NCBI GenBank assembly: GCA_044225825.1
Contig: JBGAIB010000005.1
Coordinates: forward strand, 213,750-277,749
DNA from: Chitinophagales bacterium
GTDB lineage: Bacteria > Bacteroidota > Bacteroidia > Chitinophagales > LD1
Reading direction: 5' to 3'
DNA length: 64,000 nucleotides
In this document: positions 36,149-60,047 of the stretch, in pieces
How the letters are laid out: every line of letters begins with the position of its first letter
Position numbering within the stretch: position 1 is the stretch's first letter
Made by a program: the position numbers and the translations under genes
Notes under the pieces: model-generated
What the model was told of the DNA's origin: nothing
Databases searched by the model: none
The model's input: the letters and a program-made list of their open reading frames with translations, nothing else

Positions 36149-37900
36149 ATGGCACTATCTAACGAATATGCCCACTCCAATCACCCGGCGATAAAGCCAC
36201 TAGCATTACTTTGCATTTCGGCTGTTTTTAGTTCGCTATTATGTGCTGCCACCTGGTTGCTCTGCCCACCCGAATGGGATTTTTACGACAGCTTTGTAGC
36301 CCATCTCTGCAGTGGGATAGCCACGCGCAATCAACTAACTCACTTCTTTATATATGGCTTCTACGCTATATCAAAACCTATCATCTGGCTGCAAACCAAT
36401 TTTAAGCAGGTTCCCTGGATGGGATTGCTGATAACGGGCTGCCTGCTTATAAGTAATACCCTGTTCACTTATCTGCTGTTGCGTAGATTTATGCAAGTAG
36501 CAAGCGCCTCCTTAAAATATAGTTTGTTGGCCTTGCTGCCATTGCTTGCTGCTACACAGATATACGGATATTACCGCCTCAGCATGACAGGTACAGGTTT
36601 GCTAATGACCGGCTGCGCTTTTCTGCTATCGCTTGAATTACCGTTTAATGGCAAGCGCAGTTGGATCTTTGCTATTGCCATTGTTGCCTGGTGCCTGTTA
36701 GCCACCTGCATCCGTTTCGAAACGCTTGGTGGCGGTTTAATTATTGCCCTTTATGGGCTTTGTAACCTCAGCACTGCTTATCCGGGCAAGGATTTAGTAT
36801 CACTGATTAAAAGGTGCTTACTCCCCGGCTTACCGGCCCTTGCCCTTGTACTGCTTATAACCAGCGGCTTGCAAAACGAGCCCTTTCTGAAGCAGACAGA
36901 AGTGGACTTGTATATTGCGGCAGATGGCAACTCAGCCGATCGCGAAATTGCAGCTGTAACGCCAGAGGACAGCATTAAGGAAGTAGCCATCAAACGCTTC
37001 TTTTTAAACGATGAAACGGCACTGACACCCGCTTATATTCATCAGCTGGCACTCACCACTATCAGCAACAAACAAAAGCTGGCCGGCCATTCCGATCAAT
37101 TTATGCAGCGGTTATGGCGGTTAGCCTCTCCCACCCTCCTATCACATTGGCCTTATGCTGTACTTAGCACGCTGCTGTTGTTGTTTGCGCTCCTTCTCTC
37201 GTTAAAGGCCTCTATGCGGATGCTTGTTTACCAACTGCTTTTTTGGCTTGTTATATTCTCACTGGCCTACCTCGTTAAGCTGGAGGACCGTCATTACCTC
37301 TACCTGGTTCAACTGTTTACCTACGGCAACCTACTGCTGTTCTTTAAAATTACGCAGGGCAAAAACCTGGTTCCATTAAGTGCGGCCGGTTACCTCTTTG
37401 CGGGCTTTGCGGTTTACAACATTCATAGCCATCAACCCGGGGTAAGCCAACGGTTACAGCATCTGCACCTGGCTGAACAGGAGATAAACTCCTTAACCAA
37501 AGGCAAAATTCTGTTACTGGATGGCGAATCAAAAGATGTGTTCCTTGGAACGCCATTTACACTACGCAGGTTTGCCCCAGCCCGTGATATTGTTTTCTAC
37601 GACATGGGTCAAATGCCTGTTATTACTGAGTACCGTCAACATCTTGATACCCTGTGCCAATGTAACTCGCGCAACATAACTGAATTCTACAGCTACCTGC
37701 TAAGCCATAAAAATGAGCTGTGCATCATCTCCACCGAAGAGCGGGTAACCTTTATAACTACCTATTTGCAACTGATCCACCAAAAATGCTTACCAATTCA
37801 TAAACAATTTGGTGATTTTGAAATTGAAAAAATTGAGCGAAATACAGGTAAATTGCATTACTACACATTAACTGATTCATCATGGCAGCAAATCCGGTAG
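36149..37900 (+). CDS. polytopic membrane protein (583 aa) with soluble C-terminal domain
   Basis: ~12 hydrophobic helices. No diagnostic motif. 19-nt overlap with the downstream hydroxylase gene. Confidence 0.45.
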   Translation: MALSNEYAHSNHPAIKPLALLCISAVFSSLLCAATWLLCPPEWDFYDSFVAHLCSGIATRNQLTHFFIYGFYAISKPIIWLQTNFKQVPWMGLLITGCLLISNTLFTYLLLRRFMQVASASLKYSLLALLPLLAATQIYGYYRLSMTGTGLLMTGCAFLLSLELPFNGKRSWIFAIAIVAWCLLATCIRFETLGGGLIIALYGLCNLSTAYPGKDLVSLIKRCLLPGLPALALVLLITSGLQNEPFLKQTEVDLYIAADGNSADREIAAVTPEDSIKEVAIKRFFLNDETALTPAYIHQLALTTISNKQKLAGHSDQFMQRLWRLASPTLLSHWPYAVLSTLLLLFALLLSLKASMRMLVYQLLFWLVIFSLAYLVKLEDRHYLYLVQLFTYGNLLLFFKITQGKNLVPLSAAGYLFAGFAVYNIHSHQPGVSQRLQHLHLAEQEINSLTKGKILLLDGESKDVFLGTPFTLRRFAPARDIVFYDMGQMPVITEYRQHLDTLCQCNSRNITEFYSYLLSHKNELCIISTEERVTFITTYLQLIHQKCLPIHKQFGDFEIEKIERNTGKLHYYTLTDSSWQQIR

Positions 37901-38640
37901 AAGAGCGCTTGTATTTTTTGAAAGAAGAAACCTATACCGGTTCACACAACTTCTTTTATAATAGCAGCGATTTCCCCTCCATAAAGGTTCTTCAGGACAA
38001 CTGGATGGTTATACGCGAAGAGATAATGGGGCTTATTACCGGTGAGGAAGAAATTGAAGTTAAAAATCTCAATCCGCCTTACCTCTCCTCTCCCGATGCC
38101 TGGAAGAACATCTACTTCTACAATTTTGGTTGGCAAAAGCACAGCAACTGTAAACGTTTCCCTAAAACATTTGCCCTTTTGCAACAGGTGCCCGATTTAA
38201 TTTTTGCAGGCATTACTGTGCTTGAACCTCATTCGCGGGTGCTACCGCACAATGGTGAAACTAATACTACTATCCGCTGTCACCTTGGATTGCAGGTTCC
38301 TGCCCCACTGCCCTTATGTGGGGTGCGCGTAGGCACCGAAGAACAAAGCTGGGCAAACGGACAAATTATGATGTTCAGCGATGCGCACTACCATACCACC
38401 TGGAATGAAAGCAACGAACGGCGCTTTGTGCTGGTATTTGACATTGTAAGACCCGAGTATGCACATGATAAACATAGTGTTTGTGCCAATGTACTGGGAG
38501 CCCTTTCGCTCAAGTTCTTCTATGCAAAGTGGCCCGGTTTGAAAAATGCGCCTTACGCGCTTATAAAAGGTGTTCATAGGTTATTTACTTCCTTTTGGTA
38601 TGTCTATCTTCCCCTGCAACAAAGGCTTGGTCTTCCCTAG
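37882..38640 (+). CDS. aspartyl/asparaginyl beta-hydroxylase-family Fe(II)/2OG oxygenase (LpxO/OlsC-type family)
   Basis: Family signature LEPHSRVLPHNGETNTTIRCHLGLQVP ... MMFSDAHYHTTWNESNERRFVLVFD. Confidence 0.75.
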   Translation: MAANPVEERLYFLKEETYTGSHNFFYNSSDFPSIKVLQDNWMVIREEIMGLITGEEEIEVKNLNPPYLSSPDAWKNIYFYNFGWQKHSNCKRFPKTFALLQQVPDLIFAGITVLEPHSRVLPHNGETNTTIRCHLGLQVPAPLPLCGVRVGTEEQSWANGQIMMFSDAHYHTTWNESNERRFVLVFDIVRPEYAHDKHSVCANVLGALSLKFFYAKWPGLKNAPYALIKGVHRLFTSFWYVYLPLQQRLGLP

Positions 38641-38731
38641 CACTAAAATCAATCCGTATTCTTAACAGCAAAACCTGTATTTTAATTTAAACAATCATCA
38701 ACTTTGATACTGTTGCTTCAATTTGCTGACA

Positions 38732-39613
38732 ATGGAAGAAAATTATACCGCCGTTATTGAGCACCGTAAACAACTGACCACTCACCGTTTGCTAAAGGAT
38801 GAAGCCTTAAATGATTTTTTCCTTACCAATGGCTATGTGGTTATCCCTAACCTGCTAACCACTGAAGAAGTACAAGACCTGCGCCACTGGTATCTTCAAC
38901 ACTTTGAAACCGGCCCCGGCATGTATGTAAGCCACACCGGACCCGATTATAACCGCAACAAACAAACCAGCGAGAAGATCTACAGCATTCAAAAAAGAGG
39001 ACTGGATGAATACCTGGCCCCCTATCGCCAGATGGTATCGCTGTTTGCTGCGAAGAGACCCGGCGGCGGTAACGCTTTCAAACTTCACCAGGACTGGTGT
39101 ATTGCCGACGAAGCCAACTATGCCATTGCGCAGGTATGGATAGCCCTGGCGGACCTTACCGCCAACGATGGCACCCTTATAGCAGTACCCGGCTCGCATC
39201 TCTATTTTCACAACCATCGTTCCGGTTCGTGTGGTATTAAATTTTTGGAGCACGATGCACGCTTTAATAACATTATAAAAACATTTGAGGTTAAAGCAGG
39301 CACCGCCGTGCTTTATCATCCTTCCCTCTTTCATGGCTCGCTGGATAATCATTCCACTGCCGACCGCCTTGCTACTATTACTGCTGTATGCCACCCGGAA
39401 GCTTCGTTACTTTATTACCATAAAAACGGCACTACACTCGAAACCTACGAACTTACCGATGAGGATCTGTTTAGCCGCTTAGAACCTTTAGCGCAAGGTG
39501 CCCTGCCCAAAGGCAAGCTACTGCACACTGAGCAAAACTTTCATAACATCAACGACGATATAACGGAAGAGTTGTTTATTAACCGGTATCAAAACCAGGC
39601 GCATGCTAACTAA
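38732..39613 (+). CDS. PhyH-family Fe(II)/2OG dioxygenase (paralogue 1)
   Basis: ATG 38732 preferred over TTG 38723. N-box LNDFFLTNGYVVIPNL, HxD box FKLHQDWCIADE, WIALADL, distal LFHGSLDNHSTADRLA. Confidence 0.75.
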   Translation: MEENYTAVIEHRKQLTTHRLLKDEALNDFFLTNGYVVIPNLLTTEEVQDLRHWYLQHFETGPGMYVSHTGPDYNRNKQTSEKIYSIQKRGLDEYLAPYRQMVSLFAAKRPGGGNAFKLHQDWCIADEANYAIAQVWIALADLTANDGTLIAVPGSHLYFHNHRSGSCGIKFLEHDARFNNIIKTFEVKAGTAVLYHPSLFHGSLDNHSTADRLATITAVCHPEASLLYYHKNGTTLETYELTDEDLFSRLEPLAQGALPKGKLLHTEQNFHNINDDITEELFINRYQNQAHAN

Positions 39614-41525
39614 AGCCGGCGCTGCGGTCCTTACCTGTTCCAACATCGGGAAAACCTACCGGCTTGCCGCTGGTAACCGAACCGTATTGTCCGATGTTAG
39701 CTTCGACCTTAAGAAGGGCGAAGTGCTGGGTATTATCGGGGCTAACGGTGCCGGTAAAAGCACTTTATTAAAAATACTTTCCGGCATTGTAAAACCAAGC
39801 GAAGGCCGTGTTGAACTATACGGCAGCAGCGCTTCGGTACTTGACCTGGGCCAGAACTTCCACCCTGACTTAACAGGCACAGAGAACGTGCTGATGAACC
39901 TGAAAGTTAACGGTGTTACCTCCGAGAACACAGCAGCCAAACTCGCCGAGATCACGGCCTTCAGCGAATTGCAGGAGTATATGAACGAACCGGTGAAGCA
40001 TTACTCCAGCGGTATGTTGCTGCGCCTTGGCTTTGCCCTTTATACCCACCTGGATGCCGACATCATTCTGCTGGATGAAATCATCTCGGTTGGCGATTTT
40101 AACTTCCGCAAAAAGTGCAGTGATAAAATTCAAGAGTTGGTTAAGAAAGGCGTATCGTTCCTTATCACTTCGCACGATCTGGACGCCATTCATTACTTAA
40201 CCGAACGCTGCATACTTTTGCAACACGGCGCAGCACATGTGGGCTACACATCGCAGGTAATTGAAAGCTATTTATCCAATCAAACACCTGTTGCACCTGT
40301 AACACCAACGGCAGATGGCCCCTCTGTTCTACTGACCAATGCCTTTACTGAACCGGCACTTAACGGATTAAATTCAGAAAGCGCCATTCAATTACATTTC
40401 CATTTCCAGGTATTGCAGCCCACCGAACTTGCGCTAAGCATCAACATGTTCTTCGATCAGTCGTTGCGGTTACTTAGCAGCAGCCCTGTATTTTATAAGC
40501 CCGACGCAGCACATTTATATGCGCCTGGTAACTACAAAGCCATGGTGCAATTACCGGCCCAAACATTCGCCCCCGGACTGTACGATATTGATGTGGTGTT
40601 CCACAACGGCCGAGGACGCATTTATGGCACTCATAAAAAGGCCATCAGCTTTAGCCTGGCATCCAATCCGCACTGGAACAATCTGCTGAACCAAAGTAAT
40701 ACCCCCTGGGCATTGCTGCCAAACCTGCCCTGGCAAATTGAAAGCCATACGCAGGAGGAGCCGGTGATTATTAAAGATGCCCGACTGCAGCAACAACTTA
40801 CCGAAGAGGGGTACACCTTTTTTCCGCCGGTTCCCGAAGCAACTATTGATGCCCTTGCAGCTTATATCAGTTCGCAAATGCACCACTTTACTCCCGAAAC
40901 CATATCCTGTGTTTCGGTTACACACCCCGATGCCTTGTTCCGGCAACAGTGCCAGGAGGTGATATACCGCGAGCTTGATGAATACCTGCAGCAGCATTTC
41001 AAAGACTACCAATGCGTGCTGGGCACTTTTTTTGTAAAACGCCCCAGCAACATCAGCAGCGTTGGCTACCACCAGGATCCTACCTTCTGCGATCCGGAGC
41101 TATACCCGGATTTAACCTTGTGGATACCGCTGGAAGACATTGGTGCCGGTGATGGCGAACTGGTTGTAGTAGAAGGCACACACCGCAGCTACAATAAACT
41201 TAACCTGCTTACCTACACCCCCGATTATATCCATCAATACAAGGACGGGGACGGTAAGGTACTTTACCAGCAGAAAGGCTACCCGGTATTGTTTTATAAC
41301 CACCTGCTGCATGCTTCGCGGCCCGTTGTAAACAAACAGGTACGGTTAGCAATTTCTTTAAAGCTGGCACATAAAGATGCCTTGCTGTATTCCTATTATA
41401 AGAGCACCGTACCCGGTATGGCTGAGCGATACAAGCAATCACCTAACTTTTTCCTTTCGCAGGACTGGCAGCCATTCGACCGGCCACAGCAATCGAAATT
41501 TGATAAAGAAATCCCTATCCGGTAA
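39603..41525 (+). CDS. Wzt/TagH-type ABC ATPase fused to a beta-rich middle (Wzt_C-like?) domain and a C-terminal PhyH dioxygenase domain
   Basis: Walker A GANGAGKSTLLK, signature YSSGMLLRLGFA (Wzt/TagH/KpsT variant), Walker B IILLDE. Residues ~390-640 carry the N-box DARLQQQLTEEGYTFFPPV, HxD VGYHQDPTFCD, WIPLEDI, distal LLHASRPVVNKQVRLA. Confidence 0.85.
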   Translation: MLTKAGAAVLTCSNIGKTYRLAAGNRTVLSDVSFDLKKGEVLGIIGANGAGKSTLLKILSGIVKPSEGRVELYGSSASVLDLGQNFHPDLTGTENVLMNLKVNGVTSENTAAKLAEITAFSELQEYMNEPVKHYSSGMLLRLGFALYTHLDADIILLDEIISVGDFNFRKKCSDKIQELVKKGVSFLITSHDLDAIHYLTERCILLQHGAAHVGYTSQVIESYLSNQTPVAPVTPTADGPSVLLTNAFTEPALNGLNSESAIQLHFHFQVLQPTELALSINMFFDQSLRLLSSSPVFYKPDAAHLYAPGNYKAMVQLPAQTFAPGLYDIDVVFHNGRGRIYGTHKKAISFSLASNPHWNNLLNQSNTPWALLPNLPWQIESHTQEEPVIIKDARLQQQLTEEGYTFFPPVPEATIDALAAYISSQMHHFTPETISCVSVTHPDALFRQQCQEVIYRELDEYLQQHFKDYQCVLGTFFVKRPSNISSVGYHQDPTFCDPELYPDLTLWIPLEDIGAGDGELVVVEGTHRSYNKLNLLTYTPDYIHQYKDGDGKVLYQQKGYPVLFYNHLLHASRPVVNKQVRLAISLKLAHKDALLYSYYKSTVPGMAERYKQSPNFFLSQDWQPFDRPQQSKFDKEIPIR

Positions 41526-41526
41526 T

Positions 41527-42387: not shown

Positions 42388-42390
42388 AAC

Positions 42391-42558: not shown

Positions 42559-42646
42559 TTGCGCACAGATTAGAGAAAAATCCATGTGATGAATTTTCCT
42601 GTTAAATCAGCCTGAATCCTGTGGCTCCATCCAATCCGCTTCCGCC

Positions 42647-42687
42647 ATTTGTGCACATTTGTGCACTTGATTTTGCAGTGCACAAAT
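42647..42687. repeat. three copies of the 10-mer ATTTGTGCAC (two direct, one inverted), operator-like
   Basis: atttgtgcac (42647-56), atttgtgcac (42657-66), gtgcacaaat (42678-87). Each contains the GTGCAC palindrome. Confidence 0.7.
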
Positions 42688-43227: not shown

Positions 43228-44220
43228 ATGCTAATGCCGGGGCGCATATATACTTCAAATACATATCGTTATGGGTTTAATGGAAAGGAAAAGGATGATG
43301 ATGTAAAGGGCAGTAGCGCACAGTATGATTATGGTTTTCGTATCTATGACCCTAGATTAGGAAAATTTTTAAGTGAGGACCCCTTAACTGAATCTTATCC
43401 CTGGTATTCGCCATATCATTTCGCCGGAAACACACCGATAATGGCAATAGATGTTGATGGGTTAGAGCCGCAGGTTGTTATTGACAAAGCCAATGAATAC
43501 ATTGGCACACTATATGAATGGGGTGGAAAAAGTCCTACAGCAAATTGGAAAGGAATTGGAATAAAGTTAAGAACAATAAGTGACGGCGATGTTAATTCTT
43601 TTTTATCAAAAATATCATTGAAGTTTAAAGATTCAAACCCTTCCGACAAACCCAAAATATATGATGAAATAAATGAAGGGATTTTCTTGGATGGATATAA
43701 AGTAAAATATGGAAATGGAACCTTTGGAATAGATTGCTCTGGTTTAGCTACGGCCAGCTTTAATGCTGATCAAGAAAAAATAATGAATAACTTTAATCCT
43801 GGAATTGCCTCAGCGCAAATGCAATACAATATATTTAGTCAGGCAACTTTAGAAGGGAAAGGCATTTTGCACCGTGACTTTAACAGTATCGGGAAAGGAG
43901 ATTTAGTTTTTCATAAAAACGGAAAAAAGGTGCATCATGTAATGGTGGCAACAGGCAATGTTTCATTGGATAAAAACGGGAATGTCAATAAATTTGAAGT
44001 AATACATGCCCCGGAAAGCGGAAAACAGGTAAGAACTGAATGGATGACGCCTAAGAAAGGACACTCCATTGGCCATACTTATCGGAATGGTGACATTTTG
44101 ACCCCCATAAATTTAGACGATCTACAGAGTTTTGAAGATTTAAAAGCTATCGAACAGAAGATGGAGCAAAATATAGAAAAATTCAAAAATGAAAATCAAC
44201 ACGTGGTTACACCTGAATAG
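43228..44220 (+). CDS. orphan Rhs-core-tip fragment fused to an NlpC/P60-like peptidoglycan hydrolase toxin domain (cassette A)
   Basis: MLMPGRIYTSNTYRYGFNGKEKDDD...YDYGFRIYDPRLGKFLSEDPL...IMAIDVDGLEP is the last ~80 aa of an RHS-associated core including the DPxGL-type tip. Then YEWGGKSP, GIDCSGL, GDLVFH and HHVMVATG are NlpC/P60 hallmarks (catalytic Cys/His). Confidence 0.8.
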   Translation: MLMPGRIYTSNTYRYGFNGKEKDDDVKGSSAQYDYGFRIYDPRLGKFLSEDPLTESYPWYSPYHFAGNTPIMAIDVDGLEPQVVIDKANEYIGTLYEWGGKSPTANWKGIGIKLRTISDGDVNSFLSKISLKFKDSNPSDKPKIYDEINEGIFLDGYKVKYGNGTFGIDCSGLATASFNADQEKIMNNFNPGIASAQMQYNIFSQATLEGKGILHRDFNSIGKGDLVFHKNGKKVHHVMVATGNVSLDKNGNVNKFEVIHAPESGKQVRTEWMTPKKGHSIGHTYRNGDILTPINLDDLQSFEDLKAIEQKMEQNIEKFKNENQHVVTPE

Positions 44221-48035: not shown

Positions 48036-49004
48036 TTACTCGACTTTTGTAGAAAATTCTTGAATTAATTTTTCACCTGATATTGATACGGTTCCACCTT
48101 TATCGTAACGTACACCACCCATTTCTTGCATATATTTACTCATTTCAATTCCCTTTGTATAGAAATTATCAAAAACTGTGGTCACACCATCTTTGGTAAC
48201 CGTTGTATATTCATGTATACCGGTGTTTGCAAGCTGTTTTTCAAAATTCCCAATAAGACCACTACCATCCTTTAAATCAATTCGATAATGCGCAACTGTT
48301 GCTCCTTCTTTCTCTAAAGCAGGAGCAACTCGTTTCATAAAATCAGCCGCAAAATCCATGCAAGCAGTTCCTCCAATTTTCCCTGCGCCTTTAAGCAATA
48401 ACTCTCCACCGGGACCTATTAATCTTGTTAAAGGGCCAACAACCTTACCCAGCTTAAAGAAAGGAATTATACCCAAAGCTTCAATGATATAGTCCTTCTT
48501 AGTAATTTTTTCGTTTTGAGCTTTTTTATAAGCCAACGTTGAGCCTGGTACAATCAATTTAATCATCTCAACCTGGTTGTTGATAACCATTTGGCCCTCC
48601 GGACTTCCGTATAGCCCAGTGCCTCGAATTTCTGGTTGCGGTGCAACAATCTGTAGCACAGGCTGAGGTTTTATCTGGATGTCAAGGGGCTTCCTATACA
48701 AATTACCAATATCACCAGATCCCATATATTGACGCCCTAAGCCAATGTCTATCCATCCACTTTCTCTGCCATCAATGTCCACAAACTGAACAGGATCATT
48801 TTCTGCAAACTGGTATACAGTTAGCCACGGGTAATTCATTGCTAAAGGATCAACGCTTAAAAACCTCCCAAGCCTTGGATCATACACTCTAAAGCCATAA
48901 TCCTGCTGGCTTCCGGTTATACCCTTAGCCTCATCGTCATTTTCCTTTCCATTAAACCCATAACGATATGTATTTGAAGTATATATGCGCCCCGGCATTA
49001 GCAT
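48036..49004 (-). CDS. orphan Rhs-core-tip fragment + unassigned toxin domain (cassette C)
   Basis: MLMPGRIYTSNTYRYGFNGKENDDEAKG...YGFRVYDPRLGRFLSVDPL...VQFVDIDGRES, then a ~240-aa variable C-terminus with no motif I can assign. Confidence 0.75.
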   Translation of the reverse strand: MLMPGRIYTSNTYRYGFNGKENDDEAKGITGSQQDYGFRVYDPRLGRFLSVDPLAMNYPWLTVYQFAENDPVQFVDIDGRESGWIDIGLGRQYMGSGDIGNLYRKPLDIQIKPQPVLQIVAPQPEIRGTGLYGSPEGQMVINNQVEMIKLIVPGSTLAYKKAQNEKITKKDYIIEALGIIPFFKLGKVVGPLTRLIGPGGELLLKGAGKIGGTACMDFAADFMKRVAPALEKEGATVAHYRIDLKDGSGLIGNFEKQLANTGIHEYTTVTKDGVTTVFDNFYTKGIEMSKYMQEMGGVRYDKGGTVSISGEKLIQEFSTKVE

Positions 49005-49955: not shown

Positions 49956-50933
49956 CTATTTATCAGCACCTTGTTTTGGACCAGGTTCAAAATTCCAATC
50001 ATCATTTTTCGATGGCTCTAGCGGTGAGCCACTTGTTCCTTCCGGTTTACTAGAATAATCATCAGGAAGAGGAGAGTTCCACTGATAATCTGTACCGGGT
50101 ACGTTTGGAAGCCCCTTCAATACTTGATTTTGAGGATATGGCCCCTTGTAGTGTGAAGGATCATTATCAACACCCGGATTAATATGATCGGAACCATCTC
50201 TAAGTTTTTTATGGAACAACTTTCTTACCAAATTTTCAAATCCAACTGCCCATTGATGCTGATCGTTAGCGTTAAAATACAGATAGCCAATTGGATGTCC
50301 TAACTCATGCCAAAATACAAAAAATTTTGACTGAAAGTAACCTGCCTGTGCATATCCAAAGTTTGAACCAATGCCTGTTGCTGCATACAATGTTTGTCCA
50401 GCATAGCCCATAGGGGTTGTTGCATTAGCCTCGTCAACCACATACTGCTTCCGGTCTGCACTCCATGTGAAGTTGGTCAAATCAAATCCCATAAATTCAT
50501 AATGCATGTTGATATTATTTACAACCTTAGCAATGAAATAATCTAAAATAATTTTACGATTCCCCGTAAAATGCATGTTTTGTCCATTATGCACTAGCTG
50601 ATTGCCATTAAAACTAAAACCATTATCCTTTCCAAACGTCCGTCTAAGTATTCTTAGTATAGTCTTCTGGCTTGAAGCATTAAAACAAAAAAAGTCCTCT
50701 CCTCCTTTATCCATGAACAATATCGGAGAGTTGCCGCCAAAACTATAGGGTGCTAAGTAAGGATAGGATGCTGATAAAGGATCTATGCTCAACCATCTTC
50801 CTAACCTATTATCAAAAATCCTCGCACCAAAATCCAAACTATTGCCATCTTCTTTTATTTCATTATCCTTTTCCATACCATTGAAGCCATAACGATATGT
50901 ATTTGAGGAGTATATACGCCCTGGCATTAGCAT
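49956..50933 (-). CDS. orphan Rhs-core-tip fragment + HExxH zinc-metallopeptidase-like toxin domain (cassette D)
   Basis: MLMPGRIYSSNTYRYGFNGMEKDNE...FGARIFDNRLGRWLSIDPL...ILFMDKGGEDF, then the C-terminal domain with FFVFWHELGHPIGY (HExxH). Confidence 0.7.
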   Translation of the reverse strand: MLMPGRIYSSNTYRYGFNGMEKDNEIKEDGNSLDFGARIFDNRLGRWLSIDPLSASYPYLAPYSFGGNSPILFMDKGGEDFFCFNASSQKTILRILRRTFGKDNGFSFNGNQLVHNGQNMHFTGNRKIILDYFIAKVVNNINMHYEFMGFDLTNFTWSADRKQYVVDEANATTPMGYAGQTLYAATGIGSNFGYAQAGYFQSKFFVFWHELGHPIGYLYFNANDQHQWAVGFENLVRKLFHKKLRDGSDHINPGVDNDPSHYKGPYPQNQVLKGLPNVPGTDYQWNSPLPDDYSSKPEGTSGSPLEPSKNDDWNFEPGPKQGADK

Positions 50934-51244: not shown

Positions 51245-51670
51245 TCATTTCGAGACATAAATGATTCTATCATATACATCCGTAGTTATATAAGCCTCAG
51301 GATGATTTAAAGAAGACAAAACGAAATACTGATTTCCAGGATAAATTCGGAACCGACTTGGACCTAATGTATCGCTTACTTCATCTATTACCAATCCTGT
51401 CGTATCTATCTGTCTTAAAAGATCAATTGCCTTCTTCTTCTCTATCGAATCTCCGATGGAAAAAAAATTATCCTCATCTGTTGGTCCTACTCTTAGAATG
51501 ATTCGCTTTATTCTAGAAGCAAGTATCATAGAGTCGCTTGGGCTTGAGCCTTTATTGCAATCTCTTATTTTTACCATACCCCAAGAAAATATAATACCAC
51601 AGATCCCGATTACAACTCGTCCTCGCATTGACCATACAGCCCTTCTATATAGTTGCCTTGATGTTATCAT
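51245..51670 (-). CDS. cognate immunity candidate (cassette E, 141 aa)
   Basis: ATG overlaps the toxin stop in an ATGA arrangement (51667-51670). One N-terminal hydrophobic helix (VVIGICGIIFSWGMV). Confidence 0.6.
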   Translation of the reverse strand: MITSRQLYRRAVWSMRGRVVIGICGIIFSWGMVKIRDCNKGSSPSDSMILASRIKRIILRVGPTDEDNFFSIGDSIEKKKAIDLLRQIDTTGLVIDEVSDTLGPSRFRIYPGNQYFVLSSLNHPEAYITTDVYDRIIYVSK

Positions 51671-52644
51671 TCCTGTTCGTCTTGTTTATTTTGCTGTTTT
51701 TTCTTATTCGCATCTTCAAATGCAGAATCAAGCTCATTAGCAGCCTGAATACGTGCATTGTTCATGATCTTTTCGATTTTCTTTTTAACCATTTCTTGGG
51801 GTTTGTATAGATATAAGGTTTCACCAAATTTGACATTTTTAGCATTAGGATCATTTTTAACATCATCAGCGCTTTTCTTATGCTCCTCATCGAGCCATTT
51901 CTTGTTGAATGTAAATGTTCCATTCTCATCTACCTCACCTATCCCTTCGGTTTGTAAAATCTGAACTGCTTTTGCGTCAAGCAATAGTTGATAATAATCG
52001 GTTTTTTTAAATTCTGTATATTGATCTGCAGAAAAAGATGCCGTAGATATCATTAATTCTAAAGCTACGGCGGCATCAACTTTTCCAAGTTGCTCTAATG
52101 AACTACCTACCTTCATGCCAATCACTCCTAAACCTATACCTAACCAATCACTGAACCCGAAGCTTACGCTATTATCTTTGCCTGCTAGGATTGCCTTTGT
52201 AAAGGTCGCACTCCAACTAATTTCAGGTAAAAAGGGTACACATCCAGCGATGTTTAGTGCCTTCAAATCAGATATTTTAGTAACTTTTATTTGTGCTGAA
52301 GAAATCTTATGAAAACCTTCATGGCCTTGTTTACCTAGTGGACACGTTCCAATATAGCATAATGTACTTTCAATCCAGTAATTGCCATCTATTTCGACAT
52401 TTTTTATGGGCGAGTTAGAAACAAAAGCAAAGGGTGAAACATCAGGATAATCCTTATTCAATGGATCTACTGATAACCATTTGGCAATCCGGCTATCGTA
52501 TATTCTTGCACCTGCATCAAAGCTGTTTGTCGTGCCATTTATTTCTCCATCACTTTCCTTTCCATTAAACCCATAACGGTATGTATCTGAGGAGTATATG
52601 CGCCCTGGCATTAGCATCCCAAACGGATAGTAATGCATTTTCAA
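51667..52644 (-). CDS. orphan Rhs-core-tip fragment + unassigned toxin domain (cassette E)
   Basis: MKMHYYPFGMLMPGRIYSSDTYRYGFNGKESDGE...AGARIYDSRIAKWLSVDPL...IKNVEIDGNYW, then a variable C-terminus with a hydrophobic Gly-rich stretch (FSDWLGIGLGVIGMKVGSS). Confidence 0.75.
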   Translation of the reverse strand: MKMHYYPFGMLMPGRIYSSDTYRYGFNGKESDGEINGTTNSFDAGARIYDSRIAKWLSVDPLNKDYPDVSPFAFVSNSPIKNVEIDGNYWIESTLCYIGTCPLGKQGHEGFHKISSAQIKVTKISDLKALNIAGCVPFLPEISWSATFTKAILAGKDNSVSFGFSDWLGIGLGVIGMKVGSSLEQLGKVDAAVALELMISTASFSADQYTEFKKTDYYQLLLDAKAVQILQTEGIGEVDENGTFTFNKKWLDEEHKKSADDVKNDPNAKNVKFGETLYLYKPQEMVKKKIEKIMNNARIQAANELDSAFEDANKKKQQNKQDEQE

Positions 52645-52798: not shown

Positions 52799-53500
52799 CT
52801 ACTTCCCCAACCTACCCTTAAACCTACGCACCACTCCTATCAAATTTAAAGTTTCGCTGATGGCCTGTAGGACAGTTTTAAGAGAGCCGCCTTTGGGGGC
52901 ACCGGCCATGCGCGACATATAAACGGAGGGTAGTTGTTTTACCTGCGCACCGGCCTTTAGCAGTTTGGCTGCCAGTTCGCTTTCTACCAGTGAGCTGTGT
53001 AGTTCGATACCGGTAAAGCTGAGTTGCTCTTTACGATACACCTTTATCCAGTTTACATCGTGCAGGGTGATGCCTAAAAAGATGCGGTTAAAGAAGCGGT
53101 TGGAGCGGTGCAGGATGGTGCGGTAGAAATTGTAATCGGGTTGCGGGCGGTAGAAACTGTAGAACATGGTGTTGGCAAAAGGTTCTACCTTTTCCAGTTC
53201 CCAGATATCGAATTGCCCGTCGCCGGGCACGGCGCATACATAATCGTATTGCGCAGTAAGGTAACCGCTGCGCAGTGCTTCGCCGATGCCTTTGTTAAGT
53301 TGGTGGCGGATTACTTTTAAGGTGCTTATCTGTTGTTGTAACACCTCGGCAATAGCGGGTGTTTTATCGGTGCTGCCGTCATCTACCAGGATGATTTCCC
53401 AATCGCCGGCATTTTTGGTTAAGAACTCAGCAACCTGATTGACCGTTTTGGCCAGGGCACCTTCTTCGTTATAGGCAAATACAATGATAGACCAGTTCAC
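52799..53500 (-). CDS. GT2-family glycosyltransferase, polyprenyl-phosphate sugar synthase-like (soluble, 233 aa)
   Basis: GTG start. IIVFAYNEEGALAKTV...EIILVDDGSTDKT (GT-A DxD region) resembles Dpm1/ArnC/GtrB-type enzymes. Last gene of the minus-strand PhyH operon. Confidence 0.75.
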   Translation of the reverse strand: MNWSIIVFAYNEEGALAKTVNQVAEFLTKNAGDWEIILVDDGSTDKTPAIAEVLQQQISTLKVIRHQLNKGIGEALRSGYLTAQYDYVCAVPGDGQFDIWELEKVEPFANTMFYSFYRPQPDYNFYRTILHRSNRFFNRIFLGITLHDVNWIKVYRKEQLSFTGIELHSSLVESELAAKLLKAGAQVKQLPSVYMSRMAGAPKGGSLKTVLQAISETLNLIGVVRRFKGRLGK

Positions 53501-54385: not shown

Positions 54386-54387
54386 GA

Positions 54388-55320
54388 TTACCTGAATAAG
54401 TTTTGAAGAAATTTACGGATAGGATTTGCAGGAACCGATGCGGGAGGCACTGATGCCTTTGTTTTTAGTGCGAAGCCTGCACCGGTTTTCATCCGGGCTA
54501 ACTCTACCATTAAAGCATCGCCGGTAAGTTGCTTCAAGGAGTAAGGTATAGTACCCACCGAACGGCCCATTTTGGGGCGTTGGCCGATATCGTTCATAAA
54601 ATCGCTGAAGCGAATGAGGAAGTCATCGTCCATTTCAAACACTTCCAGTTCCTGCTTATCCGGTACCTTGTAATGAAAGCGCATTTGTGCTCCCTTACTT
54701 TTAATACCTGCCGTAATTGCTTTGCGTACGGCATTACTTGTATTGGGCGGCGAATAATGTATTACACTTTGGTTGAGTATAACAGCCGTGCCTGCTTTTA
54801 CGAGCATGGGCTCCAACTCGGCTAATACAAGTTCATCGCTGCCACTGAAGAAGAAAGGCAGGGTTGGTGCACGTATAACGTGGCGGTTAGCACACTGGCT
54901 ACCGGGCATTATTTCGATTGGGCCGTTATCGGCCGTTATATCGCAGAGCGGCACCCAGCAGTTGAGTGCTACATCGGTTGTTTCATTCACTATGGTCCAG
55001 TCCTGATGCGGGGCCAGGGCGCTGTTGGGGCCGGGCACTTTATAAAGGAATGCTCCACCGAAAGGGGTATAGTCCACAAACAAACTTTCGTACGCGCGGG
55101 TAAACACTTTTACAATTTCATCGCTGGCCGCTTTTTTATAGTCGTAATCGGGACTGTAACTGCCGCTAAAAAAACCACCAGTGCCTAAGTTGGGGTGCAG
55201 TTCATCGAAACGTTTATTCAGATGCGCTACTTCTTCTGCATTGATAAAAGGCAGCACAATAAAGCCCTGCTTATCGAACAGTTGCTGATGTGCCTCGCTT
55301 TTAAATATGCGTGTACCCAT
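54388..55320 (-). CDS. PhyH-family Fe(II)/2OG dioxygenase (paralogue 5)
   Basis: SEAHQQLFDKQGFIVLPFI, APHQDWTIVNE, WVPLCDI, VIHYSPPNTSNAVRKA, tail IRKFLQNLFR. TAATG 1-nt overlap with the upstream gene. Confidence 0.78.
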   Translation of the reverse strand: MGTRIFKSEAHQQLFDKQGFIVLPFINAEEVAHLNKRFDELHPNLGTGGFFSGSYSPDYDYKKAASDEIVKVFTRAYESLFVDYTPFGGAFLYKVPGPNSALAPHQDWTIVNETTDVALNCWVPLCDITADNGPIEIMPGSQCANRHVIRAPTLPFFFSGSDELVLAELEPMLVKAGTAVILNQSVIHYSPPNTSNAVRKAITAGIKSKGAQMRFHYKVPDKQELEVFEMDDDFLIRFSDFMNDIGQRPKMGRSVGTIPYSLKQLTGDALMVELARMKTGAGFALKTKASVPPASVPANPIRKFLQNLFR

Positions 55321-56303
55321 TAGCTTAACCGATCTAACAAGCGTTGTAAAAAACTTTTGCGCACAGCAGGCTCTACCGCCGCAGGCTGCTGCACCGGTTG
55401 CTGCACCACTTTGGCCACAGCAGGCCGTGCATCGGCAAGTAATTGACGGGCATTGGTTTTAGTAAACCTGCTTTCTAAAAACTGCTTATCGATTGTAGGG
55501 AAGTTATAAGGTATGGTACCCAGCGAATGACCTACTTTGGGACGCTCGTGTATGTTTTCGCCAAACTGTTCGAAGTTGGTCATAAAATCATCGTCCTGTG
55601 CAAAGGCCTCTACACATTCCTTGTGATTGACCTTATCGAAATAATAGGTACGGAATTCGGTAGTTTTATGGGTAAAGTAGGTATTGGTTACAATGCGGAT
55701 TTTATCGGAAAAATTAGGCGGAGAAAAGTGAATAATGCTTTGATCGAAAAATACGGCCTGACCGGCCTTTACCAATACGGGCTGCAGGTAATCGACTATA
55801 TCTTCCATTACCGGACCGAAAAATTCAGGAATACTGCTACCACGGTAAGTTGGTATCAGGCGGTGGCTGCCGGGCAGTACGAATAATCCTCCGTTTTCAA
55901 CCGTGAGGTCCACCAAGGGCACCCAAATGTTAATGCCGGTGTATTTGCTTTCATCTACCAGGCTCATATCCTGGTGCACACACATGCCGCTATCAGGGCC
56001 GGGACTTTTAACGATGAAGGAGCCGCACACCACCTTGATATCAATACAGTAATTATCAATGGAACGCTGGCATATACGGCGAATTTCGCGGTCGGCTTCG
56101 TAGCGGTAATTGATGTCGCGCGAGAAGGTGCTGGGGAAGAAGCCTTTTTCATCCTGCGGATGCAGGCGGTGATAGAGTGCCTCCAACTCCGCAATTTCAT
56201 CGGGGGTATAAAACGGCAATATCACAAAGCCGTTCTTCTCGAACTCCTGCTGGTGTTTATCGTCCTTAAACACCTTCAACATCTTTTCAGGAAACTGAAA
56301 CAT
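55320..56303 (-). CDS. PhyH-family Fe(II)/2OG dioxygenase (paralogue 6)
   Basis: DDKHQQEFEKNGFVILPFY, CVHQDMSLVDE, WVPLVDL, IIHFSPPNFSDKIRIV, tail RKSFLQRLLDRLS. Confidence 0.78.
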   Translation of the reverse strand: MFQFPEKMLKVFKDDKHQQEFEKNGFVILPFYTPDEIAELEALYHRLHPQDEKGFFPSTFSRDINYRYEADREIRRICQRSIDNYCIDIKVVCGSFIVKSPGPDSGMCVHQDMSLVDESKYTGINIWVPLVDLTVENGGLFVLPGSHRLIPTYRGSSIPEFFGPVMEDIVDYLQPVLVKAGQAVFFDQSIIHFSPPNFSDKIRIVTNTYFTHKTTEFRTYYFDKVNHKECVEAFAQDDDFMTNFEQFGENIHERPKVGHSLGTIPYNFPTIDKQFLESRFTKTNARQLLADARPAVAKVVQQPVQQPAAVEPAVRKSFLQRLLDRLS

Positions 56304-56313
56304 ACACAGTGAT

Positions 56314-58230: not shown

Positions 58231-58245
58231 AAAGGTGGGGTTGCG

Positions 58246-59169
58246 TCAGGAAGCAAAAACCTGTTTGAGCCGTTGCATGAATCCAACTTTTACAGGCTGT
58301 TCATCAAAGCGCGGCGCTTTCATACGCTGTTTAAATTCCTGCTCGGTTAAAGGGTGGAATTTATACGGTATATGCCCTACCTTCTTTGCGTTTTCCGGTT
58401 TCTTCCAGGGGTTGAACTGCATGTAAAAATCAACATCCACTTCTAACACATCCACATCGGTCATACTTACCGAAGGGTCCATGTGGTAATGAATGGAAGG
58501 CATTTCGGCTGGAATACAGATAAGCTGAATAGCCAGGCGCAGTTCATTTGTTTTATTCAGCGCCGAATAGTGCACAATGCTATCATCCAAAATTACACAA
58601 TCGCCGGCGCGTGTTTCCAGCGGCACCAGGTAGTTATCAATAATTATTTCCTTAATGCCGTCCAGTTCCCAGGGTATCATAGGTCCGCGTACTTCGCCGA
58701 AGCGTTTGTGGCTACCGGGTACTACTTGTAAAGTGCCGTTCTCAACTGTTGAATCAACAAGGGGGCACCAAATAGAAACGGTGCAGCATTTACGTTCATC
58801 GGCAAAGGCCCAGTTTTCGTGCAAGGGCACCTCGCCGGTGTCGGTTTTTTTGCGAATGTAGTTGGCAATAACCGGACGGTAATCGGCCAACAGACGATCC
58901 ATATGCGGTTTGAAGTAGGTAGTTATAATGTCAAACACCTGCCGCTTATAGTCAATATTTTTATCGATAAAGGTGAAGTCGTAGGTAACAAGGCGGCTGT
59001 TTTCCACGCCGGTTTCATCGGCGCTGATCTGCCCGCCACTGGCAGGAAGCGAATCGAAAAACTTTTGCTTCAGTTCTGCTACTTCCTGTGGTGTAATAAA
59101 AGGTACACGCACATAACCATCACGCTGAAACTGTTCTTCCAGTGCCTCATCGCGCAATACTTTACGCAT
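58246..59169 (-). CDS. PhyH-family paralogue 9 with HEN in place of the HxD iron motif
   Basis: DEALEEQFQRDGYVRVPFI, VPLHENWAFADE (Asn where the eight other domains have Asp), WCPLVDS, IVHYSALNKTNELRLA, tail VGFMQRLKQVFAS. Confidence 0.75.
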   Translation of the reverse strand: MRKVLRDEALEEQFQRDGYVRVPFITPQEVAELKQKFFDSLPASGGQISADETGVENSRLVTYDFTFIDKNIDYKRQVFDIITTYFKPHMDRLLADYRPVIANYIRKKTDTGEVPLHENWAFADERKCCTVSIWCPLVDSTVENGTLQVVPGSHKRFGEVRGPMIPWELDGIKEIIIDNYLVPLETRAGDCVILDDSIVHYSALNKTNELRLAIQLICIPAEMPSIHYHMDPSVSMTDVDVLEVDVDFYMQFNPWKKPENAKKVGHIPYKFHPLTEQEFKQRMKAPRFDEQPVKVGFMQRLKQVFAS

Positions 59170-59210
59170 ATAGTTTCTATTTTCTTTAAAGAAATAATCT
59201 GCAAGGCGCG

Positions 59211-60047
59211 TTAAGCGCTGTCCACCAGTTTATCTTCCACCTTCATCAGATACACTAAACCGGCAAAGCCTAAAAGTACGCAAAATATCGGGGCTATAAA
59301 AAATTGCCATTCAGGAAACTCTGTTCCTAAAAGAGAGAAACGAATGCCTTTGATAATACCTGCCATAGGATTGAACCAAAGCAAGAACCGGTATTGATCA
59401 GGGATAAGCGTGGTGGGGTAAAACACCGGAGTAAACCATACCGCCATACCAATAAGTGCCGGCACCAATTGGTTTAAATCGCGGAAGCGGATGTTAAGTG
59501 CTGTCATCCAAACGGCTATCATAAAACCACAGGCGATTATTAAGAGCAAAAACAGCGGTAACAGGACAATACCTACATGAATACCCGTGCCGCTGATCAG
59601 TATCATAACAAACAGGATGGCGAGTGAAATGCCCATTTCCAAGCCCGAAACCACCACCTTAACCAGCAGCAGTACAACCTTGGGGAAATACATTTTACGG
59701 ATGAGCTGTTGTTGCTGCACAATTGCCGTGGAACCTGTAATAGCTATCTGCGAAAAATAATTCCAGGCAAGCATACCGCTAAAGGCAAAAAGGTAATAAG
59801 GTACAGGAGTTTCAACATGCAGTAACAGCCGGAACAACACGGTAAAAATGAGGAGAATGATGAGCGGACGAAGCACCGCCCAGGCAAGGCCGAAAAAGGT
59901 TTGGGCGTAGGTGCTTTTGATCTCCTGCCAGGCAAATACGCCAATAAGATGTCTGTACCGATATACCTCCTTTAAATACGAAGCTGCAAACGGTGGTTTT
60001 GCATTAATAACTTTAACAGGTTGTAGCTCCGCTTGCATGCTCCTCAT
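59211..60047 (-). CDS. ABC-2-type (Wzm/TagG-like) exporter permease
   Basis: Start moved to MRSMQAELQ (ATG 60047; MQAELQ at 60038 is also possible) to clear the upstream terminator. Six hydrophobic helices. N-terminal YLKEVYRYRHLIGVFAWQEIKSTYAQTFFGLAWAVLRP is typical of Wzm/TagG ABC-2 permeases. Confidence 0.78.
   Translation of the reverse strand: MRSMQAELQPVKVINAKPPFAASYLKEVYRYRHLIGVFAWQEIKSTYAQTFFGLAWAVLRPLIILLIFTVLFRLLLHVETPVPYYLFAFSGMLAWNYFSQIAITGSTAIVQQQQLIRKMYFPKVVLLLVKVVVSGLEMGISLAILFVMILISGTGIHVGIVLLPLFLLLIIACGFMIAVWMTALNIRFRDLNQLVPALIGMAVWFTPVFYPTTLIPDQYRFLLWFNPMAGIIKGIRFSLLGTEFPEWQFFIAPIFCVLLGFAGLVYLMKVEDKLVDSA

Follow-up and report, generated by a model that had tools for sequence, protein, structure and literature searches.

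A conserved array of PhyH-family oxygenase domains alongside a Wzm/Wzt-type exporter in a Chitinophagales bacterium

We analyzed a 64,000-nucleotide (nt) stretch of a Chitinophagales genome (assembly GCA_044225825.1, contig JBGAIB010000005.1, positions 213,750 to 277,749 of the forward strand), hereafter called the window, for its genes encoding oxygenases that depend on Fe(II) and 2-oxoglutarate (2OG). We found that the window belongs to a set of loci with a fixed, anciently diverged, collinear and often fused array of PhyH-family domains, named P1 to P9 in the window. This array is genetically, and partly physically, coupled to an ATP-binding cassette (ABC) exporter of the Wzm/Wzt type and to an AspH-family oxygenase, a methyltransferase, a UbiA-family transferase and a cobalamin-dependent radical S-adenosylmethionine (SAM) enzyme. 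The initial annotation of this DNA had listed nine PhyH-type domains, one Asp/Asn-hydroxylase-type domain and one JmjC/cupin domain, and a Pfam profile search confirmed each of them. It had also treated positions 37882-60047 as one packed set. The genes are present as listed, but they do not form a single locus: the PhyH and exporter genes fall into two convergent operons with a toxin-cassette island of the Rhs type, about 10.4 kb long, in between. The functional neighborhood reaches upstream to about 23.6 kb, beyond the 37882 boundary noted earlier, and the island as well as the GT-C-like, UbiA, flippase-like, radical-SAM and family 2 glycosyltransferase (GT2) partners are additions to that annotation.

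PhyH domains and their iron sites

The nine PhyH (PF05721) domains all exceed the family's gathering score of 22 bits. P2 is the weakest, with 28.6 bits over amino acids (aa) 457-582 of its protein, and the remaining domains match with E-values of 2e-17 to 7e-49. Pairwise identity among the nine is 18-38% in our own alignment, indicating that they are old paralogues and not recent copies; a recent duplication of the PhyH genes is thereby ruled out. Invariant across the alignment are the G and P of an N-terminal box, a W..L.D box, a distal H-x-S and an Arg. Four shared boxes had been ascribed to every domain, and this description holds for all but the H-Q-D box, which reads H-E-N in P9. The same exception applies to the 2-His-1-carboxylate triad that had been credited to all nine domains together with a 2OG-binding Arg: the Arg is universal, while the H-x-D...H triad is present in P1-P8. 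In the orthogroups of P4-P8, with 33-55 orthologues each, the triad is invariant except for one H-to-N substitution in a P7 orthologue. The orthogroup alignments retain H-Q-D-W, His and Arg in 33/33 sequences for P4 (window copy included), and the triad in 45/45 for P5 and 48/48 for P6. The Arg that binds the 2OG C5-carboxylate, located after the distal His, is invariant in all nine domains and all orthologues.

Structural evidence covers two proteins, and the fold assignment from their models is good for P7+P8 and of moderate confidence for P2. The AlphaFold2 model of the double protein P7+P8 (pLDDT, the predicted local distance difference test score, 86.4; pTM, the predicted template modeling score, 0.71) contains two double-stranded beta-helix domains, followed by a disordered linker (583-613) and a terminal helix (618-636). 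Its Foldseek matches include MysH, SnoK, SnoN, SyrB2, KanJ and PHYHD1, at E-values of 2e-11 to 2e-9. The fold search returned PhyH-like enzymes only, TlxIJ, SptF, FtmOx1, EvdO2 and HygX being further examples, and a sequence-profile search against solved structures agrees with it (SnoK at E 4.7e-12, plus SnoN, EvdO2, HygX and KanJ). Because these matches are all PhyH-like and share only 13-22% identity, the domains make up a distinct subfamily without a close characterized member. Hydrophobic segments were absent from the P1, P3-P6, P9, AspH and Cupin_8 proteins, in a test that left out P2 and P7+P8, and the oxygenases are predicted to be cytoplasmic. Orthologues of P6, P8 and P9 end in a basic, amphipathic C-terminal tail, and that of P6 is conserved.

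P9 departs from the other domains at its metal site. The window copy reads H-E-N-W where the others read H-Q-D, so the domain lacks the triad carboxylate. This is not a sequence error, since H-(Q/E)-N occurs in 45/45 aligned sequences of the orthogroup, whose members come from related loci L002-L053. Of the 45 orthologues, 44-45 keep the distal His, the Ser and the Arg that binds 2OG, which speaks for a functional cofactor site in which one ligand has changed and not for a decayed gene. On the strength of these alignments, P9 appears to be a PhyH-fold protein with a non-canonical metal site. The variant also extends beyond the orthogroup. Used as query in an exhaustive phmmer search, P9 retrieved 2945 representative clusters, of which 250 had E<=1e-30; in a domain survey of the best 149 of these relatives, H-x-N was found in 54 of 251 PhyH domains, including those of high-GC proteins from outside the Bacteroidota. 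Our literature search found no description of a 2-His-1-Asn PhyH subfamily, and returned only work on the two-His site of AspH and on the stringency of prolyl 4-hydroxylase (P4H). Loss of the triad Asp is generally not tolerated in hydroxylases, according to PMC2767507.

The AspH-family protein of the window likewise deviates from the full triad, with H123-N-G at the first metal-ligand position, a two-His arrangement. Such an arrangement is reported for human AspH in PMC10915816 and PMC13168262. Consequently, two of the eleven oxygenases of the locus, P9 and AspH, lack the canonical carboxylate.

P9 was also considered as a halogenase, and this candidate was rejected: its residue is Asn, not the Ala or Gly of the SyrB2/WelO5-type H-x-A/G site. 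That site was found in none of the nine PhyH domains of the window, the other eight carrying Asp, and their matches to the 'chlorinating enzyme' model TIGR01762 reach 16-49 bits against a cut-off of 226. Genes of the WelO5 family (PF22814, the carrier-independent halogenase type) do occur in related loci (L037 at 12792-13631, L058 at 9051-9950 and L060 at 9070-9966) and stand directly upstream of a Wzt-PhyH fusion in L058 and L060; there are none in the window.

Conservation of the array and its coupling to the exporter

We compared the window with related loci by taking one genome per species, which yielded 53 loci, mapped by blastp against the window proteins. All 53 come from metagenome-assembled genomes (MAGs), mostly of Chitinophagales, Flavobacteriales or 'Bacteroidetes' from lakes and sludge, and the closest relative is the Chitinophagales MAG STL-BAC32 (L024). 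For P7+P8 there are more than 120 homologues over the full length, 53-77% identical and every one from a metagenome or MAG. About 45 species-level MAGs share the collinear order permease-P9-[P7+P8]-P6-P5-P4, a recurrence that is more than chance, and the orthologues of each paralogue are 38-96% identical, as compared to the 18-38% between paralogues. The array is stable and vertically conserved across an order-level clade. The number of PhyH domains within ±10 kb has a median of 6 and a maximum of 11, and extra copies vary by locus from 1 to 11 within 20 kb.

The domains are also joined covalently, in several combinations. P7 and P8 are fused everywhere, and P6 is fused to P5 in L043, L046, L047, L049 and L052. 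Of the 149 surveyed relatives, 80 have two domains and 11 have three; one of them, P0129, is a P9+P7+P8 triple fusion that ends in a hydrophobic helix resembling a transmembrane (TM) segment. Other relatives combine PhyH with Asp_Arg_Hydrox (P0186, P0240) or with a CMAS-like methyltransferase (P0180, P0194, P0198, P0227), and P0274 carries a methyltransferase, UbiA and two PhyH domains in one chain. Together with the Wzt fusion described below, these proteins tie the corresponding window genes to the PhyH array by more than proximity. P0133, P0136 and P0137 also count among these multi-domain 'Rosetta-stone' relatives. Separately, P0143 has a 100-aa C-terminal extension that resembles the start of a GT4/GT5 glycosyltransferase and has no Pfam match.

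Each paralogue having its own orthologue, in fixed order and with repeated fusions, argues for many steps on one substrate, or for a complex, over one paralogue per substrate variant. We therefore consider it highly improbable that the paralogues are redundant, one per variant or condition, or that some of them, notably the H-x-N protein P9, are inactive scaffolds. The missing carboxylate in all P9 orthologues and the copy number that varies from locus to locus speak for such an explanation. However, the six core domains each keep their own orthologue in the same order in about 45 genomes, core paralogues are fused in many lineages, as expected for obligate co-action, and P9 retains its distal His, Ser and Arg almost without exception.

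The exporter ATPase is of the TagH/Wzt type, as initially annotated. It matches ABC_tran (Pfam) at E 2.3e-20 over aa 29-160, and its best solved relatives are Aquifex aeolicus Wzt (6amx; E 7.6e-48), TagH/TarH (6e-40) and mycobacterial RfbE (2.5e-37). NCBIfam ranks the TagH and Wzt models on top, though below their equivalog cut-offs (151 vs 538 and 148 vs 400 bits). The permease is assigned at family level only, its best NCBIfam match being galactan Wzm/RfbD with 56.9 vs 380 bits. We consider the exporter to be of the glycan type and the presumed carrier of a lipid-linked polymer, by analogy with these relatives. The ABC-2 pair is not, as had been thought, the only set of transport genes, because a flippase-like LPG_synthase_TM / TIGR00374 protein is encoded in the same operon as the ATPase.

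Physical coupling is provided by the ATPase itself, which continues into a middle domain and then into P2. The AlphaFold model of this protein is of moderate quality (pLDDT 64.5) and places an eight-strand all-beta segment at aa 242-353. In Foldseek, 369-377 columns of the model align to A. aeolicus Wzt over its full length, carbohydrate-binding domain included, with a root-mean-square deviation of about 10 Å for this moderate-confidence model. The fusion of Wzt, a putative Wzt_C domain and PhyH is found in six protein clusters, the window protein and five homologues of 35-64% identity, all about 640 aa long; PF14524 (Wzt_C) is precomputed on three of the homologous fusions, and H490-Q-D492, H570 and R581 are invariant among the fusions. 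An assembly artefact is ruled out by an independent Logan assembly and by the five further clusters.

The loci with homologous fusions repeat the operon logic of the window. They contain a flippase-like protein, one to three B12-dependent radical SAM enzymes, a 555-558-aa membrane protein, three to four PhyH genes, WelO5 and the Wzt fusion, and downstream of the fusion lie further PhyH genes, sugar genes and an ABC-2 permease. Genes resembling P1 are found upstream of Wzt in L010, L040 and L058, and P3-like genes in L015, L017, L040 and L058. L002, L058 and L060 each have Wzm and Wzt within one ±10-kb stretch, though not side by side. The permease adjoins P9 in 31 of the 53 loci.

Candidate substrates and mechanism

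Family membership, gene order, fusions and Wzt type are results of the tools described above; from them we infer a putative substrate class, membrane tethering, a complex and a set of reaction types. The reading that we prefer, and to which we give an even chance, is the cytoplasmic-face tailoring of a polyprenyl-(di)phosphate-linked saccharide, followed by export through Wzm/Wzt and hand-over in the periplasm. Assembly of the saccharide would take place on the cytoplasmic side of the inner membrane, with polyprenyl (di)phosphate as its carrier and with the small GT2 and the UbiA protein as candidate initiators. It would then be oxidized stepwise by the PhyH enzymes, with the six-domain core P9, P7+P8, P6, P5 and P4 encoded beside the Wzm permease and P1, P2 and P3 encoded beside, or fused to, the Wzt ATPase. 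The AspH-type and JmjC-type oxygenases, class B radical-SAM enzymes and the SAM methyltransferase may act on it too. Each paralogue may perform its own C-H oxidation, either a hydroxylation or the formation of a keto group that leads to deamination, epimerization or cyclization, as by KanJ, SnoK/SnoN and EvdO/HygX. The enzymes would probably form a membrane-associated assembly near the transporter, for which the basic amphipathic tails, the TM helix of some fused relatives and the fusion of P2 behind the putative carbohydrate-binding domain of Wzt are possible tethers. The finished lipid-linked product would be exported by Wzm/Wzt, and the periplasmic hand-over would fall to the flippase-like protein together with four large polytopic proteins of GT-C-like type.

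Several lines of evidence are consistent with a saccharide substrate. Lipid-linked sugars are tailored in the decaprenylphosphoryl-arabinose (DPA) and 4-amino-4-deoxyarabinose (Ara4N) pathways, and sugar oxidation on a lipid carrier has a precedent in the logic of mycobacterial arabinogalactan synthesis, which combines a UbiA-type DPPR synthase, the tailoring of a polyprenyl-phosphate sugar by DprE1/DprE2, galactan export through Wzm/Wzt and GT-C transferases. SnoK, SnoN, EvdO2, HygX and KanJ are among the nearest solved relatives, and sugar genes stand in related loci. Neighbor families, counted from a greedy gene calling of the loci, include the sugar-related DegT, FdtA, GFO/IDH/MocA, GNAT, GT32, GT87 (in one related locus) and GDSL as variable members, and a small GT2 is found in 16 loci by neighbor clustering. 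KanJ and class-B radical-SAM enzymes are established in the tailoring of aminoglycoside sugars (PMC5461906), and EvdO and HygX act on oligosaccharides (PMC13374393).

A number of observations weigh against the saccharide reading or loosen its ties to the exporter. The initial annotation had made co-variation of the paralogues with the ABC genes a test of its proposal, and the outcome is mixed: adjacency of the permease in most loci favors it, but about 40% of loci show no permease in the ±10 kb flank, which makes co-location frequent without being obligate. Where the flank lacks a permease, the array borders housekeeping genes on one side. Only 13/53 loci have a Wzt-type ATPase within 10 kb, and the window's Wzm and Wzt belong to different operons, 18 kb apart. 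The middle domain of the window Wzt has no Pfam Wzt_C match at E<0.01, and the model that suggests its fold is only moderate. The tail signal is modest as well, with a median hydrophobic moment of 0.49-0.64 against a background 95th percentile of 0.62-0.71. The window and most loci have few cytoplasmic polymerizing glycosyltransferases, an uncommon situation for a polysaccharide pathway of the ABC-dependent kind. The terpenoid-tailoring enzymes SptF, AndA, TlxIJ and PtlH likewise figure among the nearest solved PhyH relatives, and the UbiA, CMAS-like, LpxO/OlsC-like AspH and HpnJ/HpnR-like B12-radical-SAM proteins fit a lipid substrate equally well. Finally, every carrier of the array is a MAG.

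In the first alternative, the substrate is a lipid: a polyprenyl/isoprenoid or long acyl chain would be C-methylated, hydroxylated at multiple positions (one for each PhyH paralogue and for the LpxO/OlsC-like AspH enzyme), then glycosylated and exported as a polyhydroxylated glycolipid. The founding member of the PhyH family acts as a hydroxylase on an isoprenoid acyl chain. A UbiA gene is part of the operon, P0274 joins a UbiA domain to a methyltransferase and a pair of PhyH domains, and CMAS-like methyltransferases are fused to PhyH in four relatives. The AspH protein finds its best NCBIfam matches in OlsC and LpxO and the B12-radical-SAM enzyme has partial matches to HpnJ/HpnR and lipid radical-SAM families; acyl carrier protein (ACP), ketoacyl-ACP synthase III (KASIII), short-chain dehydrogenase/reductase (SDR) and acyl-CoA dehydrogenase genes are found in some loci; and the scarcity of polymerizing glycosyltransferases and the tails that suggest membrane association fit as well. 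Nevertheless, the Wzt-type ATPase appears to carry a module resembling a carbohydrate-binding domain, and the lipid-family matches all lie far below curated cut-offs (for AspH, OlsC 101.3 vs 450 bits and LpxO 81.9 vs 500, so that the equivalog is not reached). The CMAS match covers only the SAM-binding core of the methyltransferase, ACP and KASIII are present in only 8/53 loci, and sugar-nucleotide genes are frequent neighbors. On balance, we regard a lipid substrate as rather unlikely.

The same enzymes could instead constitute a secondary-metabolite cluster that makes an oxidized, methylated oligosaccharide, an aminoglycoside-like compound or a peptide, with the ABC-2 pump serving export or self-resistance. 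The toolkit does match aminoglycoside and orthosomycin tailoring (PhyH, class-B radical SAM, GFO/IDH/MocA, DegT, methyltransferases, WelO5 and radical-SAM-SPASM), and the flanks of the array are variable, with WelO5-type oxygenases and radical-SAM-SPASM proteins among the non-sugar neighbors. ABC-2 pumps such as DrrAB export natural products, and the window ATPase has a drrA subfamily match at E 2.3e-30. We still think a metabolite cluster very doubtful, because the ATPase is closer to Wzt/TagH than to DrrA and has a putative Wzt_C-like domain, and because the tightly packed operons hold no polyketide synthase, non-ribosomal peptide synthetase, cyclitol synthase or precursor-peptide gene and leave no space where one could fit. 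Four GT-C-like polytopic proteins, the flippase-like protein and a GT2 of the polyprenyl-phosphate-sugar type point to the envelope, and the array's vertical conservation across an order-level clade is unlike that of typical, patchy biosynthetic gene clusters.

A more specific arrangement can be envisaged, although we think it quite unlikely. In it, the paralogues would form hetero-oligomers docked at the cytoplasmic mouth of Wzm/Wzt, where at least six Fe/2OG sites, one of them a 2-His-1-Asn site that is not a hydroxylase, would alter every unit of a lipid-linked chain upon its entry into the channel; or else each site would hydroxylate one isoprene unit of the carrier lipid. If true, this would be a new principle, the export-coupled, multi-site functionalization of C-H bonds, yielding a polyhydroxylated or oxidized surface molecule in abundant freshwater and sludge Bacteroidota.

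A phosphonate pathway was considered on account of weak matches resembling PhnY* and P-methyltransferases, and was rejected, as no phosphoenolpyruvate (PEP) mutase was found in the window or the loci. The sole 'PEP_mutase' match in the loci is a sub-threshold stretch on a Dus protein.

We compared the locus with systems that share parts of it. The Wzm/Wzt O-antigen transporters with carbohydrate-binding domains (A. aeolicus and Escherichia coli O9a type) have the same kind of ABC-2 permease and Wzt nucleotide-binding domain, and their beta-sandwich after that domain has a putative counterpart in the window. Here, in contrast, a PhyH domain is fused behind the putative binding domain, there is no WbdD-like kinase/methyltransferase terminator, Wzm and Wzt are in separate operons with NCBIfam scores below the cut-offs, and 6-11 oxygenase domains are present. 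The mycobacterial arabinogalactan pathway resembles the window in its UbiA, small GT2, Wzm/Wzt exporter and several large polytopic transferase-like proteins; it differs in that we saw no DprE1/DprE2 homologues here, where 2OG oxygenases are used, are more numerous and belong to a Bacteroidota host with weak UbiA matches.

Among oxygenases, the sugar-tailoring PhyH-like enzymes KanJ, SnoK/SnoN, EvdO1/EvdO2, AviO1 and HygX share the fold and the cofactor site, and act on saccharide moieties, often with class-B radical-SAM, dehydrogenase and aminotransferase partners. They are 13-22% identical to the window domains and work as one to three soluble enzymes on secreted antibiotics, whereas here 6-11 paralogues in fixed order accompany an envelope exporter. 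LpxO, KdoO and OlsC likewise use Fe(II) and 2OG to oxidize a lipid or glycolipid of the envelope on its cytoplasmic side, and the locus has a member of the AspH/LpxO family; those, however, are single enzymes, the window AspH reaches no equivalog, and the dominant family here is PhyH. The TlxI/TlxJ heterodimer, a top structural match (7vbq), sets two paralogous PhyH-fold subunits to work as one enzyme. This enzyme, however, is from a fungal meroterpenoid pathway and has just two subunits, and heteromer formation is a candidate property of the window proteins.

Diversity among envelope glycoconjugates normally comes from glycosyl-, acyl- and methyltransferases. To our knowledge, oxygenases otherwise appear there only as single accessory enzymes (LpxO, KdoO, OlsC). 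In agreement with the initial annotation, which knew of no export locus with such a density of paralogous hydroxylases, our literature search (full text; PhyH with Wzt, ABC-2, O-antigen, lipopolysaccharide (LPS) or Bacteroidetes) found no account of the system, and NCBIfam holds no curated equivalog. Every component belongs to a known superfamily, and by analogy the whole would work like an ABC-transporter-dependent glycoconjugate pathway with tailoring enzymes. What is new is the scale and fixity of the oxygenase array, its coupling to Wzm/Wzt, including the covalent fusion of Wzt, a putative Wzt_C domain and PhyH, and the widespread conserved H-x-N site.

A clade of abundant uncultured Bacteroidota from freshwater and activated sludge keeps 6-11 distinct 2OG oxygenases, with radical-SAM enzymes, coupled to Wzm/Wzt. 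If the tailoring proposed here is true, these bacteria would display a heavily C-H-oxidized surface molecule of an undescribed chemical type, with a bearing on recognition by phages and grazers and on organic-matter chemistry. The locus would then also be a panel of regiospecific oxygenases working on one scaffold, and would offer, for work on mechanism, a naturally occurring iron-site variant of the 2-His-1-Asn type.

Operon layout, partner genes and flanks

The features of the neighborhood are collected in Table 1. The plus-strand operon starts at 27258 and runs in the order PMT_2, UbiA, radical SAM, 563-aa protein, flippase-like protein, B12-radical SAM, 583-aa protein, AspH, P1, Wzt-P2 and P3. 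Divergent from it are the 916-aa polytopic protein with tetratricopeptide repeats (TPR) and the CMAS-like methyltransferase. The minus-strand operon comprises the Wzm permease, P9, P7+P8, P6, P5 and P4, with the 233-aa GT2 as its last gene. The permease open reading frame (ORF) extends over 59211-60191, and its true start is likely at 60047, as originally annotated. Intergenic gaps are -19 to 91 nt in the plus-strand operon, apart from the slot of the antisense Cupin_8 gene, and -1 to 41 nt in the minus-strand operon. The plus-strand gaps, again outside the Cupin_8 slot, and the lack of a peptidase rule out a ribosomally synthesized, post-translationally modified peptide with its precursor gene, an idea that we had also considered.

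Table 1. Coordinates of the oxygenase, exporter, partner and island genes in the window
Feature	Position	Strand	Evidence
Class I SAM methyltransferase, CMAS-like	23633..24520	-	Pfam CMAS E 2.4e-18 and Methyltransf_11
916-aa polytopic protein, C-terminal TPR (GT-C-like by architecture only)	24525..27275	-	About 15-20 hydrophobic segments; TPR at aa 750-905
PMT_2-type (ArnT/PMT-like, GT-C) membrane glycosyltransferase	27258..29048	+	Pfam PMT_2 E 3.9e-09; 9 hydrophobic segments
UbiA-family polyprenyl-utilizing transferase	29073..29894	+	Pfam UbiA E 3.9e-10
Radical SAM enzyme	29881..30882	+	Pfam Radical_SAM E 6.7e-23
563-aa polytopic protein, uncharacterized family, paralogue of 36149-37900	30933..32624	+	8 hydrophobic segments
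Cupin_8/JmjC-type 2OG oxygenase	32621..33397	-	Pfam Cupin_8 E 5.4e-45; H-Q-D at aa 144
Flippase-like polytopic protein (LPG_synthase_TM / TIGR00374)	33464..34510	+	Pfam E 1.3e-24; TIGR00374 43.7 vs cut-off 43.2 bits
Cobalamin-dependent (class B) radical SAM enzyme, probably a C-methyltransferase	34595..36142	+	Pfam B12-binding and Radical_SAM
583-aa polytopic membrane protein, uncharacterized family	36149..37900	+	No family match
AspH/LpxO-family 2OG oxygenase, two-His type H-N-G	37882..38640	+	Pfam Asp_Arg_Hydrox E 7.5e-41
PhyH paralogue P1	38732..39613 (Pfam scan 38723-39613)	+	PhyH E 6.5e-24; H-Q-D, distal H, R
Wzt-type ATPase (aa 1-225), putative Wzt_C-like beta-sandwich (about aa 240-355) and PhyH P2 (about aa 385-640)	39603..41525	+	
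PhyH paralogue P3	41527..42387	+	Pfam PhyH E 2e-21
Island ORFs with Rhs stub	43228-44220; 48036-49004; 49956-50933; 51667-52644	+; -; -; -	
233-aa GT2, size and type of polyprenyl-phosphate-sugar synthases	52799..53500	-	Pfam Glycos_transf_2 E 1.2e-22
PhyH paralogue P4	53516..54385	-	Pfam PhyH E 2e-17
PhyH paralogue P5	54388..55320	-	Pfam PhyH E 2e-20
PhyH paralogue P6 (H-Q-D-M)	55320..56303	-	Pfam PhyH E 4.9e-22
Double PhyH protein P7+P8	56314..58230	-	Two PhyH stretches, E 7.3e-49
PhyH paralogue P9, H-E-N iron-site variant	58246..59169	-	Pfam PhyH E 2.5e-20
Wzm-type ABC-2 permease	59211..60047 (ORF to 60191)	-	Pfam ABC2_membrane E 1e-13

The partner genes recur near the array to varying extents. 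Orthologues of the CMAS-like methyltransferase flank it in 14 loci, and those of the 916-aa TPR protein adjoin the permease or P5 in L005, L007, L008, L013, L014 and L023. The GT2 adjoins the array in L002, L015, L017, L024, L027 and L030; its weak NCBIfam matches include ArnC, PpgS and dolichyl-phosphate-hexose transferases, and those of the UbiA protein are to prenyltransferases and decaprenyl-phosphate phosphoribosyltransferase. The radical SAM enzyme encoded nearer to the operon start has a 63%-identical orthologue in L016, beside UbiA, Cupin_8, flippase-like and PhyH-array genes, and Cupin_8 orthologues lie near the array in L005, L014 and L016. The B12-radical-SAM family is represented in 12 loci, with a 58%-identical orthologue at the same position in L058, and the flippase-like protein keeps its position in L058 and L060. 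Its TIGR00374 domain is the only one to pass an NCBIfam cut-off, and no protein of the locus reaches an equivalog cut-off.

The 563-aa and 583-aa proteins have no Pfam or NCBIfam match, and a word-index search found only two homologues of the latter. Their family is fast-evolving, with R189, E251, D274 and D288 invariant across ten members. A ten-member profile found nothing in the PDB, and hhalign against the PMT_2 protein gave a probability of 0.2, so that membership in GT-C is proposed from architecture only. In a search against solved structures, the PMT_2 and UbiA proteins had no matches, and the 916-aa protein matched only through its TPR. In the Wzt-side operon, a member of the 563/583-aa family always separates the B12-radical SAM gene from the oxygenases, and this position of the 583-aa protein is kept in L058 and L060.

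Between the two operons, the island spans 42.4-52.8 kb and has a low GC content (0.34-0.42), as compared to 44-48% in the flanks on both sides. Four of its ORFs share an N-terminal Rhs/YD-type stub of about 95 aa that is 51-60% identical and carries the motif MLMPGRIYxSNTYRYGFNGKE...DPL..YPW. Their C-termini are unrelated (NlpC/P60, Tox-PL-2), a small ORF follows each, and no full-length Rhs gene was seen in the window. The island looks like an orphan array of polymorphic-toxin/immunity cassettes, unrelated to the oxygenase system. Two independent assemblies, one from the same organism (L001) and one from the closest relative (L024), end at its borders, 42388 and 52798, which suggests strain-level variability or repeats there.

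At the outer flank of the minus-strand operon, a DsrE-family protein and a flavoprotein resembling sulfide:quinone oxidoreductase (60163-62228) lie directly upstream of the permease, whose ORF has an over-extended GTG start that the DsrE ORF overlaps. This pair is conserved next to the permease only in the closest relative, L024 (91-94% identity), and is therefore probably unrelated to the oxygenase and export system. At the other end of the window, the minus-strand genes at 8625-19855 encode a 2490-aa protein with CarboxypepD_reg/transthyretin-like repeats, then a 687-aa protein containing fn3 and then a 569-aa protein without matches, and may form a large surface-protein operon.

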